Positions 43,288-51,553 of a DNA stretch of 51,553 nucleotides are shown piece by piece; within the stretch, counting starts at the first letter, position 1, and every line of letters starts with the position of its first letter. The position numbers and the translations under genes were made by a program. This DNA is from Gemmatimonadota bacterium (GTDB lineage: Bacteria; Gemmatimonadota; Gemmatimonadetes; Gemmatimonadales; GWC2-71-9), in assembly GCA_040389605.1 (NCBI GenBank), contig JAZJZU010000019.1:1-51553 (forward strand), read 5' to 3'. The notes beneath the pieces are model-generated. The model ran no database searches and was not told the origin of the DNA. It worked only from the letters and a program-made list of their open reading frames with translations.

Positions 43288-44403
43288 ATGCCTGGCGTTC
43301 GCCTGCTGGTCGGTACCCGCAAGGGTGCCTTCGTGATCACCTCGGATGAAAAGCGTGAGAAGTGGGACGTGGCCGGCCCGCACTTTCCGGGCTGGGAGGT
43401 GTATCACGTCAAGGGATGCCCGACCAATCCCGACCGGATCTATGCCTCGCAGTCCAGCGCCTGGTTCGGACAGCTGATCCAGCGTTCCGATGATGGCGGC
43501 AAGAGCTGGAACCCGGTTGGCAACCAGTTCACCTACGACGGGGAGCCGGGTACACACCAGTGGTACGATGGCACCCCGCATCCGTGGGAATTCAAGCGTG
43601 TCTGGCACCTCGAACCGTCGCTCACGGATCCCGATACGGTCTACGCGGGGGTGGAAGACGCGGCGCTCTTCCGCTCGACCGATGGCGGCGCGACCTGGGC
43701 GGAGCTCCCCGGCCTGCGCAAGCACGGCACGGGGCCGCAGTGGGCCCCCGGCGCAGGGGGAATGTGCCTCCACACGATCATCCTCGACCCGGCGAACCCC
43801 GAACGCATCTATATCGCGATCTCGGCCGCTGGCGCGTTCCGGAGCGACGATGGCGGCGCCAGCTGGCACACGATCACCCGGGGTCTCAATTCGCTCTACA
43901 TCCCGAACCCGACCGCCGAGGTCGGGCATTGTGTTCACCATATGGCGATGCATCCGTCCAGGCCGGGCGTGCTCTATATGCAGAAGCACTGGGATGTGAT
44001 GCGCAGCGATGACAGCGGCGACCTCTGGCGCGAAGTGAGTGGCAACCTGCCGAGCGACTTCGGGTTCGTCATCGATGTGCACGCGCACGAACCGGAGACG
44101 ATTTATGTCGTCCCGATCAAGAGCGACGCGGAGCACTATCCCCCCGATGGCAAGCTCAGGGTTTACCGGAGCCGGAGCGGCGGAAATGAGTGGGAGGCAC
44201 TGACGCACGGACTGCCGCAATCCGATTGCTACGTCAACGTGCTGCGCGACGCGATGAGCGTCGATGCTCTCGAGACGTGCGGAGTCTACTTCGGCACCAC
44301 CGGCGGGCAGGTGTATGGCTCACGGGATGCGGGCGACCACTGGGAGGCCATCGTCCGGGATCTGCCAGCGGTGCTCTCGGTCGAGGCACAGACGCTGCCG
44401 TGA
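43288..44403 (+). CDS. cytoplasmic BNR/Asp-box beta-propeller protein (sialidase-fold, Ycf48-like)
   Basis: 371 aa with no signal peptide. Asp-boxes: [54 protein letters not shown]. Confidence 0.85.
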
Positions 44404-44696
44404 TTCGCGTCCAGCTACCGGCGCCGTTGCTGGCATTGGCGCGACTCGAAGGCGAGCTCGCCATCGACATCGACGGCCCGGCCTCTCCCGCTCTCGTCCT
44501 CGATGCGATCGAGGCGCGCTATCCCATGCTGCGCGGCACGGTTCGCGATGGCGTCACCGGCAAGCGGCGGGCATTCGTCCGCTACTATGCCTGCGAGCGG
44601 GACATCTCCCACGATCCCGCCACGACACCGTTTCCCCCAGCTGTGCAGCGGGGAGAAGAGCCATTCCTGGTCATCGGAGCGATGTCGGGGGGCTGA
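44400..44696 (+). CDS. MoaD/ThiS-like ubiquitin-fold (beta-grasp) protein ending in Gly-Gly
   Basis: The GTG at 44400 overlaps the BNR stop (GTGA). 98 aa: [10 protein letters not shown]...[12 protein letters not shown]-stop. The length, the hydrophobic pattern and the C-terminal GG match MoaD/ThiS sulfur carriers. Confidence 0.72.
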
Positions 44697-44697
44697 T

Positions 44698-45171
44698 TCA
44701 GCTGGTGGGGAACACCGGCTCGCACCGCACCTCGCTGCGGACCGAAGCGGCGATGAAACAGGTGTCGTGCGCCTCGTGATGCAGCGCCTCGATCTCATCA
44801 CGAGTGGGAACCAGCGCTCCCGAGAACACCACATCGGGTCGCAGGGTGACCACGCTGATCCAGTCGCGACCGGCGTCATCGCGTGCCATTACGCCAACGG
44901 CGTCATCGCGATACCGGTCAACACGGTAGCCACGCCTGGCCGCGGCATAGAGGAACGTAAGCAGGTGACAGCTCGCGAGCGCCGCCACAAACGCTTCCTC
45001 CGGATCGATCGCCGCCGGATCGGACCAGGGGAGCCGGACGTGCAGCGGGGACGACGACCCGGCCACCTCAATCCCCCCATCGAAGCGCAGGAGATGCCGC
45101 CGACTGTATCGCTTGTCGGTAAACACCGCCTCCCCGCGCTGCCATTCCACCTCGGCGTGATACTCGGCCAT
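44698..45171 (-). CDS. OsmC/Ohr-family peroxiredoxin-like protein
   Basis: Start at ATG 45171 (alternative at 45192). PEEAFVAALASCHLLTF and HHEAHDTCFIAASV carry the two conserved Cys residues of OsmC. Confidence 0.85.
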   Translation of the reverse strand: MAEYHAEVEWQRGEAVFTDKRYSRRHLLRFDGGIEVAGSSSPLHVRLPWSDPAAIDPEEAFVAALASCHLLTFLYAAARRGYRVDRYRDDAVGVMARDDAGRDWISVVTLRPDVVFSGALVPTRDEIEALHHEAHDTCFIAASVRSEVRCEPVFPTS

Positions 45172-45280
45172 ACGCTCCTTACCACCGGGCATTGTGCCTT
45201 CGCCCGGAGTGGGTCTCACGGCGCGACCATCCCCTGACGCAAGATCGCGCCGATGGCCCGCGGCCGCTACCCTCGGAGCA

Positions 45281-45841
45281 TCAGGGCTTTCGCGTCGGTG
45301 CCGATGGATGCGCCGCCTGCCACTTCTCGGCGGCCGCAAGATGGCTGTGCAATAGCGGGAGCTGCTGTGCCAGGAACTGACGCACTTCCGGCCGCGTTGC
45401 CGTGCTGCCCAGCGAGCCTTCCAGCAACTTGATGACCGTCTGGTGCTCCGCAATGATGCACTGGATGAACCGCGCATCGAAGGCGCTGCCACTCAGCAGA
45501 TTGAGTTCGTGCATCGCGGTTTCGTGCGCGTGCGTCAGGACCGTGTCGGTCGGGAGCGCGCGCGTGATGCCAAGGGCCTTCGCCAGCCGCCCGCCCTCCG
45601 TGAGTGATTTCCGGTGGTCGGTCACCATTGTGCTGGCGAGGGAGCGCACATCGCCCCCGCCTGCCTTCGTGCTGGCCAGCTTCGCGGCTTCCGTAATGCT
45701 CGCATCGGCTGCGTTGATGGCTCCCAGGACCGCGGCGTCACCCGTTCGGGGCTGGACCGGGGCGGTGCGCGCCTCGCTCACGGGACGCCCCTGCACCGGC
45801 GCCTGGACCATCAGAAAAATCGACAGAATTCCCGTCAGCAT
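45281..45841 (-). CDS. DUF4142-domain secreted protein (ferritin-like helical)
   Basis: 186 aa, GGAG SD, signal peptide. AAVLGAINAADASITEAAKLA...MVTDHRKS...FDARFIQCIIAEHQTVIKLL is the DUF4142 pattern. Confidence 0.8.
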   Translation of the reverse strand: MLTGILSIFLMVQAPVQGRPVSEARTAPVQPRTGDAAVLGAINAADASITEAAKLASTKAGGGDVRSLASTMVTDHRKSLTEGGRLAKALGITRALPTDTVLTHAHETAMHELNLLSGSAFDARFIQCIIAEHQTVIKLLEGSLGSTATRPEVRQFLAQQLPLLHSHLAAAEKWQAAHPSAPTRKP

Positions 45842-45868: not shown

Positions 45869-46861
45869 CTATTTGACAGCCGTAGCGGTCGAGTCCTGAT
45901 GGCACTTTCCGCCGGCGGGATCCCAGACGCGTCCCGTCACATCGAGGAAGGCCGAGCGATACTCGCCCTTGCCAAGCGTGAGCTTCAGGACGCCGAAATA
46001 TCCCTGGACACGCGCCGCGCTGGTGGTCCGGGGGTTGTTGCGGAAGCCGCGCATATCGCCACCTCCCGTGCCGACGACGTACTCCACTATCCCGCCCGTA
46101 GAGTCCACCACACCGAGCGAGTTCTGCGGGAGAAACCGCTCGTAGTCGTGGTCGTGGCCATTCAGGATCACGTCGACCCCTCCGGCCTGCAGGATCTCCC
46201 AGAGCGAGCGAGTGGCCGGCGACTCGCCGTGCCAGCCGGAACTGAAGAGCGGATGATGCCAGTAGGCCAGCGTGCAGAGCGCTTGCGGCTTCTTGAGCTC
46301 GGCACGGAGCCAGTCTTCCTGCGCCTGGCGGTCGGCCGCCGAGAAGCTCCCGTTGACGATCATCTCGCTGTTGAGCGCAATCATATGCCAGGCCCCGACA
46401 TCGTAGCTGTAATAGCCCTTGTTGGGCGAGCCGGCCTTGCTTCCGAAGTATTCATAGTACGGCGCGGCACCCACGGTGAGGTGCTCGTGATTGCCAGGCG
46501 AGGGGTGGATCTTCTTCATGATCATCTTGTTCGAGTCACCCCAGGAAGGCGCGAAGCACAGCGCGAAATTGCTGGCGCTGCCACTGGGATACGCATTGTC
46601 TCCGAGGGTGGCGACCTCGCTCGTGACCTTGGCGGCGCTGTCTGCGCGGAGCAGGCTGTCGGTGAGGGCCGCCGTCTGTTCGTCGCCATCTGTCCCGCAG
46701 ACTGCGATGTCCCCCACGGCGATCAGCACCGAGGCACCCGTGAGCGCAACTTCCTTGGCCGTGGCGGTGGCCGGCGCTGGCGTGATCTGCACTGGAATCT
46801 TGCAGGCCACGGCCACGACCAGCCCTGTCAACGCGAGTGCTACCAGACCGTTTCTTTTCAT
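45869..46861 (-). CDS. calcineurin-like metallophosphoesterase lipoprotein
   Basis: ATG 46861 gives the signal peptide with lipobox MKRNGLVALALTGLVVAVAC. Motifs GDIAVCG, GDNAY, GNHE and GHDHDYER are present. Confidence 0.85.
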   Translation of the reverse strand: MKRNGLVALALTGLVVAVACKIPVQITPAPATATAKEVALTGASVLIAVGDIAVCGTDGDEQTAALTDSLLRADSAAKVTSEVATLGDNAYPSGSASNFALCFAPSWGDSNKMIMKKIHPSPGNHEHLTVGAAPYYEYFGSKAGSPNKGYYSYDVGAWHMIALNSEMIVNGSFSAADRQAQEDWLRAELKKPQALCTLAYWHHPLFSSGWHGESPATRSLWEILQAGGVDVILNGHDHDYERFLPQNSLGVVDSTGGIVEYVVGTGGGDMRGFRNNPRTTSAARVQGYFGVLKLTLGKGEYRSAFLDVTGRVWDPAGGKCHQDSTATAVK

Positions 46862-46863
46862 GG

Positions 46864-49476
46864 TCAAATCCCCAGATGTGCGAGGCGAAGCGCGATCACC
46901 GACGTCTGGCCGGTCTCATTGGCGCGCAGGACTCTGATATCGATGGACAGTTCGTGGTACGCCACCCAGAAACCTGCACCGAAGGCATTGTGCCATCCGC
47001 CGGGAGACTCTCCCTTCACGTACACGCGGCCGATGTCGCCGGTGCCGAGGAGTCCGACGTTGAGTGGAAGCACGAACAGGAATTTCGCAACCGGAACCCG
47101 CAGTTCCGCGGTGGCGTAGAGCGAGGCATCACCCGCGTATCGCTGCAGGTCGAGCGTTCGCACGTCGGTTCGGCCGCCGATGAAGGCGGATTCCTGGAAC
47201 GGGAAGTCGCCGAACACCTTTTTTCCGCCCGCTCGCAGGCCGAGGTACGGATGCAGCGGCACCGGAACCGGGAAGTAGACGGCCCCCGAGGCGCTGACCG
47301 AACCGAATCCGCTGCGCACGTCCCAGACGGCCGGGAAGTAGGTCCCGGTAAGCTCCAGCTCGGTTCCGTGGTGCGGATGGCGCTTGGGAACGCGGTCGAC
47401 GTGCAGAAGCGAGAGGCGCAGGCCTGCTTCGCCGAAGCGCCCCGACCCGTACGGCATCGTCGCCGAGATGGCGCGATCGGGGGTGCTGTCGGTCACCGAG
47501 TACTGCAGCACCGGCCCGAAGGAGAGTTCGGTCGTGCGCCCGAGCGTCCGCGCGAGGGCCGGGCGGAACAGCCACTGCCGCTGATTGATGGCGAAGTAGT
47601 CGTCCCGGGGCGTCGATACACCCACCACCGTGCCCGGGCTCTGCGGAGACTGGTTGCCGAGCCCGTGATAATTGACCATCTCGAGCTGGGACATCCGCGC
47701 GAGCGCCGTGAAGTGGAGTGGCGAGGCCTCGTGACGCTGGTCGAGGGTCAGCGCGACGGAGTTGCCCCCGATCTTGAACGAGTGCCGGGCCTCGATGGCG
47801 ATCATTCGCGAATAGGGTTCCTGCCTGAAGCCGTACTGGTACCACGACATTCCGATGCGCGGCTCGATGCCGTAGTCGTGGTTGATGCTCGCCCCGACGA
47901 TCGGCGCGCTCTTGTGGCCCTGGTCACGGCCCGCGGGATGGAGGTGCCCCGCCCTGCCGGTCAGCGGACGCCGATTGAAGAGGGTGTCCTTGCCGTATTC
48001 AACGTTCGTCACGAGACCCTGATCGTACAGATGCGCCTCGCCCTGATGCCCGTCGACTCGCGACGAATCGACGAGCGCATTGCGGCCATTCCCGCCGATG
48101 ATCCAGACCGGGATGCTCTTCGCAACATCGCCACGGACCTCGGCGTGATCATCGCCCCCGTGGAGGTAGAGCCGGATGGCCGTCGTTTCATCGGCGTGGA
48201 ACCGCCGGTCGAAATACGCCGTGCCATCGGGTCCTGTCAGTTGCACGGCCACGGTGTTCGAGTCTGCTCGCGTCACCACGGCGTGATCGGCGGCGTCGGT
48301 TGCGTGGATATCCACCACTCCCGCGAGGTAGGCGTAAAAGCGGTTGGCCACTGCTGGCAGGCTGTCCCGTCGCACGCGCAGCCGGGCCATCAGCTCGGGA
48401 GCAGTCGCGGAGTATTCCGGCGGCATTGCGGCACCGACCGAGGCGATGACCGAGTCGGTCAGGCGCCGCGCGAGGGCAGCTGCCACGGAGTCCCAGGTCG
48501 GCTTCTCCAGTCCATCGAGTAGTCGGTGGTCGAAGTCCAGGCTGTTCCAGGTCAGTCCGCGCATCCCCGCGTAACTGCTGTCGAAGATCATCAGGTTCGC
48601 CGATACCGCGCGACCGATCTTCGGCAGGAAGCCGCTCACCGAGATGAAGGCCTTGTCGTAATCGCGGGAGATCGGCTCCCATCTGGCATTCGGTGAGCCA
48701 CTGAACCTGGCCCACTTCCACTGCCCCGGGTGCCGGTCCCAGTTGTTGACCATCATATCGACCAGTCGCGCTGCCAGAAAAGCGCGGGTGTCGATCTGCA
48801 CCGTGGGATCGCGGTTCAGGAGTCGAAGCAGGGAGTCGCTGTCGATGATGTCGGTCGCCCCGCCGAATCCTCCCTTCGCCTGATGGCCCTCGTCCGGATA
48901 CTGTCCAAAGCCGCCAAGGCGCCCGGCATAGACTTTCCGGAACTCGCCGAGACGCGGGTCGTCCGGCATCGCCACGATGACCACGTTCTCGTGCAGAACC
49001 CCGGCGGCCTCGAGGAGCGGCGGCACCAGGACCCCGGCCGCCGGGTGAGAACTGCTCACCTGATCGCGTGCGAGGTGCTCCACGAGCGGAATGCCGCTCA
49101 ACGACTTGGGAGTCTCGGCCTTTTCCTTGTCAATCGAACGGAAGACGTATTCCACATCGCGCGCCGTCGTGAAGCGCAGCGATTTGGTCTGGTTTCCGCC
49201 GCCTTCCTTCTCGGGTGACAGGCCACCACCAAAACGGCCAAGGTCGAGCACGGGAACGCGGATCGGCGTGAGCCAGAGATCACGATAGGTTCCGCCAAAC
49301 AACGAGCGATGGAATCCGCCTGCCTTGTAGTGCGCCCCTGCCGGCCTGGTCACGCTGTCGCGCGTGTTCAGCACGGGGGCCGTCTGCTGCGCTGACAACG
49401 CGGCAGGAGCGAGCAGGGTCAGGAGGAGGAGCGCTGCGCGGGGTGCAGCGCCTGGAGTCGGTTTCGTGACAGGCAT
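46864..49476 (-). CDS. Omp85/BamA-TamA-type outer-membrane barrel protein with a large N-terminal domain carrying a DRH...D-x-D motif
   Basis: It has a signal peptide (...LLLLTLLAPAALSAQQ). The C-terminal roughly 350 aa are alternating beta strands ending GGRTDVRTLDLQRYAGDASLYATAELRVPV...AFGAGFWVAY, which is surface-antigen/Omp85-like. ATG 49476 overlaps the upstream stop (TGATG); the track ORF starts at GTG 49485. Confidence 0.72.
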   Translation of the reverse strand: MPVTKPTPGAAPRAALLLLTLLAPAALSAQQTAPVLNTRDSVTRPAGAHYKAGGFHRSLFGGTYRDLWLTPIRVPVLDLGRFGGGLSPEKEGGGNQTKSLRFTTARDVEYVFRSIDKEKAETPKSLSGIPLVEHLARDQVSSSHPAAGVLVPPLLEAAGVLHENVVIVAMPDDPRLGEFRKVYAGRLGGFGQYPDEGHQAKGGFGGATDIIDSDSLLRLLNRDPTVQIDTRAFLAARLVDMMVNNWDRHPGQWKWARFSGSPNARWEPISRDYDKAFISVSGFLPKIGRAVSANLMIFDSSYAGMRGLTWNSLDFDHRLLDGLEKPTWDSVAAALARRLTDSVIASVGAAMPPEYSATAPELMARLRVRRDSLPAVANRFYAYLAGVVDIHATDAADHAVVTRADSNTVAVQLTGPDGTAYFDRRFHADETTAIRLYLHGGDDHAEVRGDVAKSIPVWIIGGNGRNALVDSSRVDGHQGEAHLYDQGLVTNVEYGKDTLFNRRPLTGRAGHLHPAGRDQGHKSAPIVGASINHDYGIEPRIGMSWYQYGFRQEPYSRMIAIEARHSFKIGGNSVALTLDQRHEASPLHFTALARMSQLEMVNYHGLGNQSPQSPGTVVGVSTPRDDYFAINQRQWLFRPALARTLGRTTELSFGPVLQYSVTDSTPDRAISATMPYGSGRFGEAGLRLSLLHVDRVPKRHPHHGTELELTGTYFPAVWDVRSGFGSVSASGAVYFPVPVPLHPYLGLRAGGKKVFGDFPFQESAFIGGRTDVRTLDLQRYAGDASLYATAELRVPVAKFLFVLPLNVGLLGTGDIGRVYVKGESPGGWHNAFGAGFWVAYHELSIDIRVLRANETGQTSVIALRLAHLGI

Positions 49477-50381
49477 CAGGGCCACCGGTACAGGGTAAGG
49501 CGTGCCTGGCTGCCCTTTGCCTCGTCACTGATGATCAGGATGTGATCACCGGTGATGGCAATGCCTTCCGGTTGCGGATGATTCGGCGGCAGCGGACGGG
49601 AAAACACGACGTCACCCGCAGGAGTGATTTCCACGATCCCCTTTTCCAGGGAGGAGAGCAAAACGTAGTTCCCGCTCGCCGGGTCGACGGTGATGTCCGA
49701 TGGCGAGAAGTCATCCCACTTGTTCGCGCCAATCACGCGATCCACGGGAATCAGCATCGGAACCAGGGATTGTCCTTCAAGGCTGCCATTGGCGCCCACG
49801 GTCGCGCGGAAGATCACCACGTTGCCCTTGAGGTCCTTGTCGTGCGTCTTCTTGCAGGCAAACAACAGCTGGCTCGCGGTCGAATCGTAGGCCATTCCCT
49901 CGAACTCGCACTTCGAGCCCAGGTCGGTGTCGTATTTTTCATACGCCACCGAGGCACCATCGGCCCCTTGCCGGAAGCGGTAGAGCAGTCCGTCGCTGGT
50001 GAACAGCAGCAACAGGTTGCCGATCCGGGTGATCGACTCGAAGTCACCGTGGACAGGGGGCGACCCGAGCGTGAACTCTCCGGTGATCCGGCCGCGTCGG
50101 TAGTCAATCTCGAAGATCTTCCCGCGCTCATCGCCGTGCGCGAGCAACCGGCCGTTTGGGGTCACGACCATTCCCGAAATTTCGTTCAGCTTTTCGGGGA
50201 GCTTCCATAGCGCGACGGGACCCTGCGACCCGGCCTGGGTCGTGTCCTGCAACGACTGCACCAGGCGAGCCTCACGCGCCGCAAGCAGCGCACTGTCGCT
50301 GGCAGCCGCGTCAGCCGCGTCACCACGCGCGCAGCCGGTGCCGAGCGCACCGAGCAGCAGGAGTGCGAGTCGACCCCTCAC
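49476..50381 (-). CDS. SdiA-regulated-domain (YjiK-like) beta-propeller protein, probably a lipoprotein
   Basis: 301 aa. The GTG start overlaps the upstream stop (GTGA). Signal peptide RGRLALLLLGALGTGC. LNEISGMVVTPNGRLLAHGDERGKIFEID and PEGIAITGDHILIISDE resemble PF06977. Confidence 0.72.
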   Translation of the reverse strand: MRGRLALLLLGALGTGCARGDAADAAASDSALLAAREARLVQSLQDTTQAGSQGPVALWKLPEKLNEISGMVVTPNGRLLAHGDERGKIFEIDYRRGRITGEFTLGSPPVHGDFESITRIGNLLLLFTSDGLLYRFRQGADGASVAYEKYDTDLGSKCEFEGMAYDSTASQLLFACKKTHDKDLKGNVVIFRATVGANGSLEGQSLVPMLIPVDRVIGANKWDDFSPSDITVDPASGNYVLLSSLEKGIVEITPAGDVVFSRPLPPNHPQPEGIAITGDHILIISDEAKGSQARLTLYRWP

Positions 50382-51463
50382 GATGCGCGCTTCTCGAGTG
50401 CGGCGCCCTCACCCATCTCGAGGTCGGCCGACAGGACCGTGTTGCCCGCACTCTCGTGGAGTGCGGTCATGAACTGTTCGCGACTCACGCTCTTCCGCAC
50501 ACCCACGAGATAGTAGATCTCGCCCGGCTTCCCCTCTGTCGTAATGACCTGGTCGAGCCGCCAGCGGCGAGCCAGCCGGTCGAGCACCAGCTCGATCCGC
50601 TTCTGGGCTTCGCCCACCATCTCCGAGGTCACCATCAGCACGGCATTGAATCGGGGCTTCTTCTGTTTCGTGCCCAGCAGCTTTTCGATCTTCTCGAATC
50701 GCTTCGCCAGCCGGGCGGCCTTCTTCGGCGAGAGCGCCAGCACCAGGTCGCGGTCGGGAATGCTCGCCTCAATATCCTTCTCGGCCAGGTCACCCAGCGG
50801 CTCGGCCCACTGTGACGCGGCCGTCGGCTCGAGCACGTTCCGGCCGAAGTCGTACCGCCAGATCAGCAGGACCACGAAATTGAACGTGATCGACAGCACC
50901 GCGGCCACCAGCAGCGACTGCACGCCGGCCGCCAGGCCAACCCCGATGCCAAGGAAGATGTAGACCATATCCCGGACATCGAGCGTCGTGGTGCGGAAGC
51001 GGAGTCCCGCCACGATGCCACCGAGCGAGAACGCGAGTGCGAGCGAGGACCGCACGACCAGGACGATGCCGGCGACCACCAGCGGCAGGATGATCAGCGT
51101 CTGCACAATGCTCTGGTCAGCATCGCGGTGCCGCCGGGCCGACATGAAGACCCAGCTGACTGGCAGCATCAGGGCCAGGGTGGTCAGCATCACTCCGAAC
51201 GACATCACCACCAGCGAGAGTCCGGATTCCGCAGGGACCGCAGCAATCCGTTCCTGATTCTTCGAGAGGCCATCCTGCAGCAGCTGGGAGTCGTTCACCA
51301 GTGCACTCGCGTGATCGCCCTGAATCACGTGGCCGACTGGCGGAACGAAATAGATCAGTGCCGCCACGACGACGGCCAGCGCGATGTAGTACGCGGCAAG
51401 CCGCCGAAGCGGCTTGTCCGACCCAAGGGTCAGGATGTCGATCGAGTGCTTGAAGAACCCCAT
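50378..51463 (-). CDS. DUF4956-domain membrane protein with an extra C-terminal soluble domain of about 140 aa
   Basis: 361 aa. The core LALAFSLGGIVAGLRFRTTTLDVRDMVYIFLGIGVGLAAGV matches my memory of the DUF4956 motif (..RFRT.i.D.rD..f.F..i..G...G). The C-terminal half is charged and soluble. Confidence 0.62.
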   Translation of the reverse strand: MGFFKHSIDILTLGSDKPLRRLAAYYIALAVVVAALIYFVPPVGHVIQGDHASALVNDSQLLQDGLSKNQERIAAVPAESGLSLVVMSFGVMLTTLALMLPVSWVFMSARRHRDADQSIVQTLIILPLVVAGIVLVVRSSLALAFSLGGIVAGLRFRTTTLDVRDMVYIFLGIGVGLAAGVQSLLVAAVLSITFNFVVLLIWRYDFGRNVLEPTAASQWAEPLGDLAEKDIEASIPDRDLVLALSPKKAARLAKRFEKIEKLLGTKQKKPRFNAVLMVTSEMVGEAQKRIELVLDRLARRWRLDQVITTEGKPGEIYYLVGVRKSVSREQFMTALHESAGNTVLSADLEMGEGAALEKRAS

Positions 51464-51553
51464 GGACCCGCCGGAAGAGGGTAAGGCGCTACATCCTGCC
51501 TCGGGGGAAGACGGTCAAGTCGCTCCCTGCAACACCCGGGGGGCTTCGGGGTG

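Follow-up and report, generated by a model that had tools for sequence, protein, structure and literature searches.

A conserved Gemmatimonadota operon combines DUF4956, a kinase-like domain on an Omp85-type barrel and two phosphoesterase-type lipoproteins, with a likely role in envelope phosphoryl chemistry

In a window of 51,553 nucleotides from a Gemmatimonadota bacterium (the whole stretch of DNA that was analysed), we found that the four overlapping genes are a genuine operon, which is conserved among Gemmatimonadota. It probably serves to transfer phosphoryl groups and process phosphoesters in the envelope, from an anchor in the outer membrane. Our best explanation, to which we assign a probability of roughly 0.55, is that an outer-membrane-anchored kinase-fold enzyme works with phosphoesterases and a DUF4956 partner in envelope phosphoryl chemistry. 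In that explanation, the locus is a translationally coupled and self-contained envelope operon. The genes and their flanks are:

50378 to 51463, minus strand: gene 1, DUF4956 inner-membrane protein, 361 aa
49476 to 50381, minus strand: gene 2, propeller lipoprotein, 301 aa, GTG start
46864 to 49476, minus strand: gene 3, kinase-like domain and Omp85 barrel, 870 aa from the ATG
45869 to 46861, minus strand: gene 4, metallophosphoesterase lipoprotein, 330 aa from the ATG
45281 to 45841, minus strand: DUF4142 secreted protein (PF13628, E 1.5e-25)
51464 to 51553, minus strand: upstream intergenic region, first 90 nt of about 200 nt, presumed promoter and 5' UTR

At the level of gene organization, the preliminary description had given four minus-strand open reading frames with these coordinates, joined by GTGA, TGATG and a 2-nt gap, and a DUF4142 gene 27 nt downstream; all of this was confirmed. 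The GTG start of gene 2 lies over the stop of gene 1 (GTGA, 50381-50378), genes 2 and 3 overlap in TGATG (49478-49474, read from the sequence), and genes 3 and 4 are joined as TGA-cc-ATG (gap at 46863-46862). The 27-nt gap between gene 4 and the DUF4142 ATG (45841) contains an AAGGAG Shine-Dalgarno sequence. Upstream of the operon there is a carbonic anhydrase gene, with its terminator hairpin at contig positions 51575-51596, past the window end, and the intergenic region is broken by a run of 10 N, with no sigma-70-like promoter scored in it. In other genomes, the tight four-gene cassette recurs amid variable flanks. The overlapping or near-abutting junctions, the terminator after the upstream gene and the maintenance of the cassette within variable flanks thus identify the four genes as an operon.

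For synteny, we sampled 80 loci, with denominators that vary with the flanking DNA present. The propeller gene was immediately upstream of the barrel gene in 60 of 71 loci, DUF4956 was present at 54 of 60, and the metallophosphoesterase gene was immediately downstream at 51 of 70. The full order DUF4956 - propeller - barrel - metallophosphoesterase was found in 35 of the 55 related loci with enough flank, with barrel identities down to 40%, and the four-gene cluster was also found in a Krumholzibacteriia MAG (L063). The gene order is therefore not unique to one genome; it is kept in dozens of them, and chance is a poor explanation for the arrangement. A downstream DUF4142 gene was seen at only 7 of 65 related loci; it is a lineage-specific passenger outside the conserved core. 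Among 301 genomes of the phylum, 72 carried both DUF4956 and the kinase-barrel gene, 30 the kinase-barrel gene only, 59 DUF4956 only, and 140 neither (odds ratio 5.7, Fisher p 1.4e-11, with no phylogeny correction). The partnership is not obligate, since the kinase-barrel was not detected in 59 genomes with DUF4956 and the reverse was true in 30. In KSB1 and at certain paralogous loci, the barrel protein is alone. Two CotH genes and one PAP-domain gene were observed near the KSB1 homologue.

The gene 3 product begins with a signal peptide, which is followed by the kinase-like domain, then by an all-beta linker domain and last by a 16-strand Omp85 barrel (AlphaFold2 model of the full protein: pLDDT 86.4, pTM 0.81). 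Its features are:

48319 to 49386, minus strand: kinase-like domain (HipA/CtkA/Fam20C/CotH-like), gene 3 residues ~31-386
49186 to 49203, minus strand: Gly-rich loop GGGNQT, residues 92-97, between model strands E87-93 and E98-103
49126 to 49128, minus strand: K117, candidate ATP-binding lysine, conserved to at least 97% across 405 homologues of several phyla
48712 to 48738, minus strand: catalytic-loop motif D247-R248-H249-P-G-Q-W253-K-W255, aligned by HMM profile to CtkA
48655 to 48663, minus strand: D272-Y-D274, candidate metal-binding (DFG-equivalent) aspartates, D272 and D274 each at least 97% conserved
47917 to 48318, minus strand: all-beta linker domain, residues 387-520, with strands and zero helices by DSSP on the model
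46867 to 47916, minus strand: Omp85 barrel, residues 521-870, with 16 strands in the AlphaFold model (521-866)

According to its model (pLDDT 88.8, pTM 0.90), the kinase-like domain is predicted to fold as a protein kinase with an intact putative catalytic set. Foldseek matched it to CtkA (E 6.6e-6), Fam20C (2.1e-5), HipA (3.6e-5), CotH (1.8e-4) and PI4K-IIalpha (5.4e-4). The probability was 1.00 for the first four, in agreement with a bilobal kinase fold, and the TM-scores of the fold matches were modest (0.3-0.55). A helical C-lobe at residues 305-385 is additional. Residues 1-526 matched no Pfam family up to E 10, HipA_C, PI3_PI4_kinase and CotH included, and the PDB profile match to CtkA, via the catalytic loop, was weak (E 0.11-0.4). 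In that alignment, the DRHPGQW stretch of gene 3 falls on the CtkA catalytic loop NFDRHNGNW, with Q in place of the N found in HipA and PI3/4-kinases. More than 870 homologues of gene 3 were found, and residue conservation was computed over 405 homologues. D247, R248, W253 and W255 were each at least 97% conserved, K117 was invariant in three homologue alignments, and the metal-binding motif has the counterpart RDRDQAF in a Spirosoma homologue. In the Gly-rich loop, which we take to resemble the HipA-type P-loop GxQxK, conservation was at least 97% for T97 and 90-97% for G93 and G94. A protein that joins a kinase-fold enzyme domain to an Omp85 barrel has apparently not been described before.

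The C-terminal part of gene 3 is, as modelled, an Omp85-superfamily 16-strand barrel without POTRA. The Omp85-type assignment of the preliminary description was upheld by the AlphaFold model and by Foldseek, where the top 50 PDB matches were BamA, TamA and other Omp85-superfamily proteins (CdiB, Sam50) with E from 7e-10 to 1e-7. A Pfam match was lacking: PF01103 was not listed for the barrel in the Pfam scan of its own genome, and it is carried by many gene 3 homologues. The NCBIfam model Omp85_fam (NF047779) gave a sub-threshold match at residues 695-842 (44 bits vs. a cut-off of 200, E 1.9e-11). Omp85 proteins have the motifs (V/I)RG(Y/F) in loop 6 and (F/G)xDxG in beta-13. Here, GGRTDVRTL and GDIGRVY are the candidate L6-type and beta-13-type motifs, with G767, G768, R773, G816 and R817 as conserved residues of the barrel. 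The residues aligned with them in the Spirosoma homologue are the canonical LRGF and FNDVG. The linker domain sits where Omp85 proteins normally carry POTRA; no Pfam POTRA match was obtained in gene 3, and residues 387-520 lack POTRA-type helices in the model.

The closest architectural parallel is PlpD of Pseudomonas aeruginosa, which also has an N-terminal enzyme domain fused to a 16-strand Omp85 barrel. Its enzyme domain is experimentally periplasmic, and the barrel is a scaffold or anchor and not an insertase (PMC11116518). However, PlpD has a patatin lipase fold, whereas gene 3 has a predicted protein-kinase fold, an all-beta domain in place of POTRA, and an operon with two putative phosphoesterases and an inner-membrane protein. 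PlpD was originally classed as type Vd (PMC11116518). We considered type Vd membership for gene 3 and rejected it, as it contains no patatin or POTRA domain and has the barrel alone in common.

Regarding the two lipoproteins, their sequences allowed family assignments that agree with the preliminary description, and both obtained the corresponding Pfam matches. Gene 2 is a YjiK/SdiA-regulated-type, phytase-like beta-propeller lipoprotein: it matched SdiA-regulated (PF06977, 26.5 bits vs. a cut-off of 21) and Phytase-like (PF13449, E 1.4e-5), and the profile of its orthologues matched Escherichia coli YjiK (3QQZ) almost over the full length (residues 67-285, E 1.5e-6). Its lipobox is LGTG-C17, with C17 almost invariant. 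Gene 4 is a predicted purple-acid-phosphatase-like metallophosphoesterase lipoprotein (Metallophos, PF00149, E 4.4e-12). Its closest PDB sequence matches were purple acid phosphatases (E 3e-6), the plant entries 6git/6gja included. In 17 orthologues, five metal-binding motifs (D51, GD88xxY91, GNH125, H202 and GH236xH238), the lipobox C20 and four other Cys were invariant.

Gene 1 is the sole DUF4956 copy in the genome, and its assignment was likewise obtained by Pfam (PF16316, E 6.7e-12, 45.9 bits vs. a cut-off of 30.6, residues 102-202), with a match that covers only model positions 7-107 of 169. DUF4956 was matched in 20 of 20 gene 1 orthologues, and their alignment contains the invariant motif LRFRTxxxDxRD. 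From hydrophobic stretches and the positive-inside rule, we predict about six transmembrane helices with both termini cytoplasmic. An extra, unannotated C-terminal domain of about 160 aa, predicted to be cytoplasmic, makes this a "long form"; for residues 202-361 there was no Pfam or PDB match, and no homologue of the C-terminal domain was detected. Long-form DUF4956 paralogues are paired with a PafA-like alkaline phosphatase in three loci.

DUF4956 was said to be usually seen beside VTC and CotH genes, and our comparisons agree with this. In 14 control genomes, DUF4956 and VTC were in the same three, and CotH was in those three and Bacillus subtilis. Other Gemmatimonadota have canonical CotH-VTC-DUF4956 and VTC-DUF4956 clusters with a short-form DUF4956. 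In Gram-positive bacteria, such CotH-VTC-DUF4956 genes also accompany Pel loci in an accessory capacity (bioRxiv 10.1101/768473). The reported absence of VTC and CotH here stands at the Pfam level, as neither VTC (PF09359) nor CotH (PF08757) was found in this 91%-complete genome. However, "CotH kinase absent" is misleading in function, because a kinase-fold domain, which the preliminary description did not mention, makes up about 40% of the barrel protein. VTC is truly absent, and a CotH-like kinase fold is present at the locus after all. The operon thus resembles the CotH-VTC-DUF4956 clusters in encoding a DUF4956 membrane protein with a signal-peptide-bearing kinase-fold protein that has a CotH fold match. 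It differs from them in the long-form DUF4956, the barrel-anchored kinase fold, the two extra phosphoesterases, and the lack of VTC and PF08757.

The suggested fusion of a calcineurin-like phosphoesterase to an Omp85 barrel in Bacteroidota does exist: about 70 proteins of 1206-1268 aa, from Spirosoma, Larkinella, Pedobacter, Desertivirga and other genera, contain Metallophos, kinase-like and Omp85 parts in one chain and are homologous to the window barrel protein. The Spirosoma homologue and gene 3 are 29% identical over 805 residues (E 4e-94). An orthologous propeller gene was immediately upstream of the fusion in five of the six Bacteroidota loci examined, and the Pedobacter one is 26% identical to gene 2 (E 6e-23). 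These fusions (e.g., Spirosoma radiotolerans, CP010429.1) share with our operon the kinase-like, beta and Omp85 module, the YjiK-like propeller upstream, and a calcineurin-like phosphoesterase within the unit. The idea that the operon is their split version is too simple, since the phosphoesterase is N-terminal in the fusions and a separate downstream gene in the window, and the two have only the metal-binding motifs in common (E 0.03). Moreover, the membrane neighbour at the fusion loci is an HD-PycTM protein unrelated to DUF4956. PPK1 adjoins the fusion locus in two of the six Bacteroidota, with an inorganic pyrophosphatase directly downstream in one. Overall, the interpretation in the preliminary description is supported, and the operon may act, as it proposed, on a phosphorylated envelope substrate.

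In the best explanation, the kinase-fold domain would be tethered to the POTRA-less barrel via the all-beta domain, with K117, D247-R-H and D272/D274 as its catalytic set. The PlpD analogy makes it most likely that the barrel anchors this domain to the outer membrane on its periplasmic side. The kinase-fold enzyme would there partner two lipoprotein phosphoesterases, the YjiK/phytase-like propeller and the purple-acid-phosphatase-like protein, and together they may attach phosphoryl groups to an envelope or extracytoplasmic substrate, take them off or process them. The target could be a hydroxyl on a protein, lipid or glycan; polyphosphate- and nucleotide-type compounds are the other candidates. 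The long-form DUF4956 is probably the inner-membrane partner that delivers or senses the phosphoanhydride used by the periplasmic enzymes, in a role that would parallel that of its short-form relatives, which accompany the polyphosphate polymerase VTC and the secreted kinase CotH. This phosphoanhydride link is drawn from DUF4956 in CotH-VTC clusters, the PPK1 and pyrophosphatase neighbours, the KSB1 CotH genes and the PafA-like pairings. Points against the best explanation are the lack of VTC in the genome, the Q in the loop, the modest TM-scores, the lack of a kinase Pfam match, the failure to detect a homologue of the DUF4956 C-terminal domain, the non-obligate partnership, the loci with the barrel protein alone and the HD-PycTM protein in Bacteroidota.

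Known kinases give partial precedents. The atypical Ser/Thr kinases HipA and CtkA share with gene 3 the fold, the DRHxx[NQ]W loop (also PI3/4-kinase-like), a later Asp and a Gly-rich GxQ loop. However, gene 3 has no Pfam HipA or PI3_PI4 match, Q for the loop Asn, and the additional C-lobe, and it carries a signal peptide and an outer-membrane barrel anchor, whereas HipA/CtkA are a cytoplasmic toxin or secreted and soluble. Fam20C and the secretory-pathway kinases are examples of the kinase fold outside the cytosol (fold match E 2e-5), although they have no sequence relationship with gene 3. Fam20C is eukaryotic and receives its ATP within the Golgi lumen. The periplasm is not known to contain ATP, which counts against the best explanation. 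We consider it unlikely that the operon is a widespread extracytoplasmic phosphorylation system, in which an active barrel-anchored kinase would use a polyphosphate or NTP donor, DUF4956 would move this donor across the inner membrane, and the phosphoesterases would reverse or recycle the modification. If true, there would be a periplasmic kinase/phosphatase cycle on envelope components, and DUF4956 would be functionally analogous, in bacteria, to the VTC channel of eukaryotes.

A possible though doubtful alternative is the scavenging of organic phosphorus or polyphosphate. The phosphatase and the propeller would free phosphate from external organophosphates, the barrel would be an uptake pore or anchor, the kinase fold would bind or hydrolyse nucleotides or polyanionic phosphorus compounds with no target phosphorylation, and DUF4956 would serve inner-membrane uptake or sensing. 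The purple-acid-phosphatase-type matches of gene 4, with the plant entries among them, the Phytase-like signal in the propeller, the PafA-like phosphatases beside long-form DUF4956 paralogues, the PPK1 and pyrophosphatase neighbours, and the soil or sediment MAG hosts are all consistent with it. However, Pst, PhoU and PhoBR genes were absent from every flank examined, a binding module would not need a strictly conserved kinase catalytic set, and we know of no Omp85 barrels that act as nutrient pores.

Two further roles for the barrel appear highly improbable. It could export its own kinase domain to the surface or medium in a type V-like manner, in Bacteroidota together with the phosphoesterase fused to it. 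Other cells or external substrates would then be the targets of the exported kinase, an action that has been proposed for CtkA. This secreted Helicobacter pylori kinase is the top structural match, and the passenger-then-barrel layout is like that of type Vd proteins (PMC6555100). Nevertheless, gene 3 lacks POTRA, the passenger of the prototype PlpD is periplasmic (PMC11116518), the organisms that carry it live freely in soil and are not associated with a host, and the tight coupling with an inner-membrane protein and two lipoproteins favours an envelope-internal role. With as little probability, gene 3 would be a BamA/TamA-type insertase or a lipoprotein handler for the two co-encoded lipoproteins, with the kinase fold as a non-catalytic chaperone or scaffold in place of POTRA. 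The NCBI name of the homologues ("BamA/TamA family outer membrane protein"), the apparently kept L6 and beta-13 Omp85 motifs, and the lipoprotein nature of the partners point in that direction, whereas near-invariant catalytic Lys and Asp across phyla are unexpected in a scaffold, a canonical BamA-like gene (151.9 bits) is present elsewhere in the genome, and an active-site-intact phosphoesterase fused in the same chain points to enzymology.

Finally, when grouped at 50% identity, the kinase-like domain family falls into about 3,700 clusters.

At the end of the window, four minus-strand genes form a conserved operon. Its products are a DUF4956 protein of the inner membrane, a propeller lipoprotein like YjiK, a protein that joins a kinase fold to an Omp85 barrel (the kinase-barrel), and a phosphoesterase lipoprotein resembling purple acid phosphatases. 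Direct reading of the sequence of this Gemmatimonadota MAG confirmed the four reading frames and the tight junctions of the preliminary description. The upstream features lie on L002, the contig stretch running past the window end (the window is bases 1-51,553 of a 57,535-base contig).

Features of the operon and its flanks
51575-51596 of the contig (L002:576-597), minus: intrinsic-terminator-like hairpin AGCGCGCCG-AAAC-CGGCGCGCT, then TTGACTTTCC, 3' of a beta-carbonic anhydrase gene
50378-51463, minus: gene 1, DUF4956
49476-50381, minus: gene 2, propeller lipoprotein; GTGA junction with gene 1 at 50381-50378
46864-49476, minus: gene 3, kinase-barrel (870 aa); TGATG junction with gene 2 at 49478-49474
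45869-46861, minus: gene 4, metallophosphoesterase lipoprotein; TGA-cc-ATG after gene 3, a 2-nt gap at 46863-46862
45841: ATG of a downstream DUF4142 gene, preceded by 27 nt with an AAGGAG Shine-Dalgarno

Upstream on the same strand, a gene for a beta-carbonic anhydrase (by sequence motif) stops some 200 nt short of gene 1, with the GC-rich hairpin and a T-tract after it; thus, the four genes begin their own transcription unit. A simple scan of the 200-nt upstream region, which has 10 N inside, scored no sigma-70-like promoter. This run of N (L002:561-570, contig 51560-51569), just beyond the window, breaks the presumed promoter region and leaves a promoter or Pho box partly unreadable; it represents a gap in the scaffold or bases that were withheld. 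Downstream of DUF4142, an ORF at 44698-45492 (minus), OsmC-like by eye only, converges on a BNR-propeller/MoaD-like pair at 43288-44696 (plus), and neither is kept beside the operon in related loci.

For gene 3, the Omp85 barrel suggested earlier stood as a fold, but not as a Pfam assignment of the protein itself. AlphaFold2 (pLDDT 86, pTM 0.81) predicted a barrel of 16 strands, and the 50 best PDB matches to the model are barrels of the Omp85 superfamily, BamA and TamA among them. By sequence, gene 3 matched no Pfam family and its C-terminus gave only a sub-threshold Omp85_fam match, while PF01103 is carried by homologues. POTRA domains normally define Omp85 proteins; in the model, the all-beta residues 387-520 take their place. 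Searching with the barrel alone (residues 535-870) for other N-terminal architectures returned the same family only. The window's own genome holds six further PF01103 matches (G000:C91:28497-29663 and on five other contigs), including a canonical BamA-like gene with 151.9 bits, so the kinase-Omp85 protein is an extra, specialised paralogue.

The N-terminal 60% of gene 3 contains, in alignments, the invariant block NDWDRHPGQWKW...RDxDKAF. No Pfam family matched residues 1-526 even at E 10, and a PDB-sequence profile search gave a single weak match, which coincides exactly with the catalytic loop of CtkA, a kinase of H. pylori. We modelled residues 28-520 separately from an alignment of 73 orthologues (pLDDT 88.8, pTM 0.90), and Foldseek retrieved kinases only: CtkA (6.6e-6), Fam20C (2.1e-5), HipA (3.6e-5), CotH (1.8e-4), and PI4K-IIalpha (5.4e-4). 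Among 405 homologues from several phyla, conservation is 97% or higher at each of K117, D247, R248, W253, W255, D272, and D274. This pattern fits an active enzyme, not a decayed pseudokinase.

A profile of the kinase-like domain retrieved 3,702 clusters (50% identity) from Gemmatimonadota, Bacteroidota, KSB1, and Krumholzibacteriota, and 1,775 of these matches lie below 1e-30. NCBI currently calls members of the family 'BamA/TamA family outer membrane protein', labels others 'metallophosphoesterase', and leaves some as 'hypothetical'. Several Gemmatimonadota genomes carry two to four kinase-Omp85 paralogues; two such genes lie in tandem or close together at G130:C5:472133-476281, G083:C32:296232-300324, and G294:C14:8453-14657, and paralogues without the other three genes were seen at six loci (L091, L093-L095, L100, and L105). 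The phylum scan also gave open frames of 1150-1460 aa, which were rejected as fusions: in high-GC DNA the frame stays open upstream of the gene, and inspection placed the true starts at signal peptides.

The other three domain assignments held. Gene 1 matched DUF4956 above threshold, limited to residues 102-202. Hydrophobic stretches and the positive-inside rule indicate six transmembrane helices with both termini cytoplasmic, and the C-terminal part, a cytoplasmic domain of roughly 160 aa, is conserved; neither sequence nor profile searches linked it to anything in Pfam or the PDB. Gene 2 exceeded the SdiA-regulated threshold and also gave a Phytase-like signal; the profile of its orthologues matched E. 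coli YjiK (3QQZ) over near full length (E 1.5e-6), and it has a lipobox with a nearly invariant C17. Gene 4 encodes a Metallophos protein, and its nearest solved relatives are purple acid phosphatases; in 17 orthologues every one of the five motifs for metal binding is invariant, as are the lipobox Cys and another four Cys. PADLOC matched none of the four products to a defence system.

The gene order extends beyond this genome. In a synteny set of 80 genome loci with homologues at 40-79% identity, the propeller lies immediately upstream in 60 of 71 loci, DUF4956 lies upstream in 54 of 60, the phosphoesterase is immediately downstream in 51 of 70, and the complete four-gene order is kept in 35 of 55. 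DUF4142 comes next in only 7 of 65. The cassette, also found in one Krumholzibacteriia MAG, keeps its tight junctions while its flanks are otherwise unrelated. Among 301 genomes of the phylum, 72 have both kinase-barrel and DUF4956, 140 neither, 30 the kinase-barrel only, and 59 DUF4956 only (odds ratio 5.7, Fisher p 1.4e-11, with no correction for phylogeny). In the genus to which the window belongs, the two genes occur in the same 7 genomes and are missing from the same 5.

The preliminary description mentioned Bacteroidota proteins fusing a metallophosphoesterase to an Omp85 barrel, and these proved to be real. One domain-profile match of 1,335 aa combines Metallophos, the kinase-like domain, and Omp85 in one chain, and used as a query it retrieved some 70 proteins from Bacteroidota, 1206-1268 aa long, that carry PF00149 and PF01103 (Spirosoma, Larkinella, Pedobacter, Desertivirga, Fulvivirgaceae, Ferruginibacter, and Microscillaceae), all with the kinase-like domain. 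The alignment between the Spirosoma radiotolerans fusion and the gene 3 product spans 805 residues at 29% identity (E 4e-94) and covers the GGGxQT, DRH, and RDxD motifs. The operon is not simply the split version of the fusion: the phosphoesterase of the S. radiotolerans protein is N-terminal and has only metal motifs in common with gene 4, which makes this an independent association. Arguably, this independence strengthens the functional link. An SdiA-regulated propeller gene lies directly upstream, often overlapping, in five of six Bacteroidota loci, and the Pedobacter propeller shares 26% identity with gene 2 from end to end. Kinase-barrel, propeller, and a metallophosphoesterase constitute a module common to several phyla. 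The Riemerella metallophosphoesterase was rejected as a fusion precedent, since the published enzyme is T9SS-secreted with no Omp85 fusion.

Omp85 proteins are known as insertases and translocases and, in PlpD, as the anchor of a lipase. An Omp85 scaffold bearing an enzyme domain was known before, and what is added here is a kinase-fold version; its operon partnership is multi-phylum and uncharacterised. The Omp85 survey of Heinz & Lithgow 2014 mentions no phosphoesterase or kinase architectures. Within an incomplete literature coverage –absence of evidence only– we found no description of a kinase-fold domain on a POTRA-less Omp85 barrel and no paper having both 'Omp85' and 'kinase-like'.

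In PlpD, the enzyme domain is periplasmic and the barrel is a scaffold (PMC11116518). By analogy, we infer that the Omp85 barrel may anchor the kinase-fold enzyme to the outer membrane on its periplasmic side. The anchored enzyme and the two phosphoesterases would act on a phosphorylated substrate, either of the envelope or extracytoplasmic, and DUF4956 might supply or sense a phosphoanhydride donor. The main rival is scavenging of organophosphate or polyphosphate, with the kinase fold binding or hydrolysing its substrate without phosphorylating a target. Surface display and a dedicated assembly factor are less likely readings. If the kinase-like domain is active, which donor drives periplasmic phosphoryl transfer becomes directly testable, and DUF4956, an orphan family, gains a concrete functional context, as do the CotH-VTC-DUF4956 clusters. 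The fused version occurs in cultured Bacteroidota (Spirosoma, Larkinella, Pedobacter), which makes experiments feasible.

DUF4956 was expected to accompany VTC and CotH genes, and to lack them here; both points were borne out. DUF4956 and VTC match the same three of 14 control genomes, and CotH those three and Bacillus subtilis. The window's own genome, 91% complete, has one DUF4956 gene and, by family searches, neither VTC nor CotH anywhere. Other Gemmatimonadota carry canonical short-form CotH-VTC-DUF4956 and VTC-DUF4956 clusters, and the CotH-VTC-DUF4956 accessory set has also been described beside Gram-positive Pel loci (bioRxiv 10.1101/768473).

Neighbours of DUF4956, fusion, and kinase-Omp85 genes (L-numbers are examined loci)
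L117:4297-5949, L121:8066-9865, L125:7447-9096 (other Gemmatimonadota): PF01663 phosphodiesterases, divergent to long-form DUF4956 paralogues
L107:6541-7839, L108:5796-7004, L112:2498-3715, L113:2702-3907, L114:10777-12039, L115:2639-3880 (Bacteroidota): HD-domain + PycTM membrane proteins, 400-430 aa
L114:8731-10773, L115:591-2642 (2 of 6 Bacteroidota loci): polyphosphate kinase 1 (PPK1), beside the HD-PycTM gene
L115:8735-9256 (one locus): inorganic pyrophosphatase, directly downstream of the fusion gene
L110:3191-6430 (KSB1 contig): two CotH-domain genes, one also with a purple-acid-phosphatase N-terminal domain

Across these neighbourhoods, the recurring theme is extracytoplasmic chemistry of phosphoanhydrides and phosphoesters. 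The long-form DUF4956 paralogues stand without a kinase-barrel, and with the PF01663 phosphodiesterases they form a second recurrent DUF4956-phosphatase partnership; the L117 protein, the only one of the three scanned, resembles alkaline phosphatase PafA (NCBIfam, E 2e-82). The KSB1 CotH genes lie 1.6-4.8 kb upstream of a kinase-Omp85 homologue, with a divergent MFS gene in between.

The HD-PycTM gene adjoins the propeller and fusion genes in all six Bacteroidota loci (PycTM by PADLOC, E 1e-19); as a DUF4956 homologue it was rejected (hhalign probability 0.3). The HD-PycTM gene and its cyclase-like neighbour resemble a Pycsar-type cyclase/effector pair, yet their synteny with the envelope module holds across bacterial families. 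A nucleotide-cyclase-like gene is often nearby: Guanylate_cyc in L107, and DUF2652, which we take to be cyclase-like, in L108, L113, and L114.
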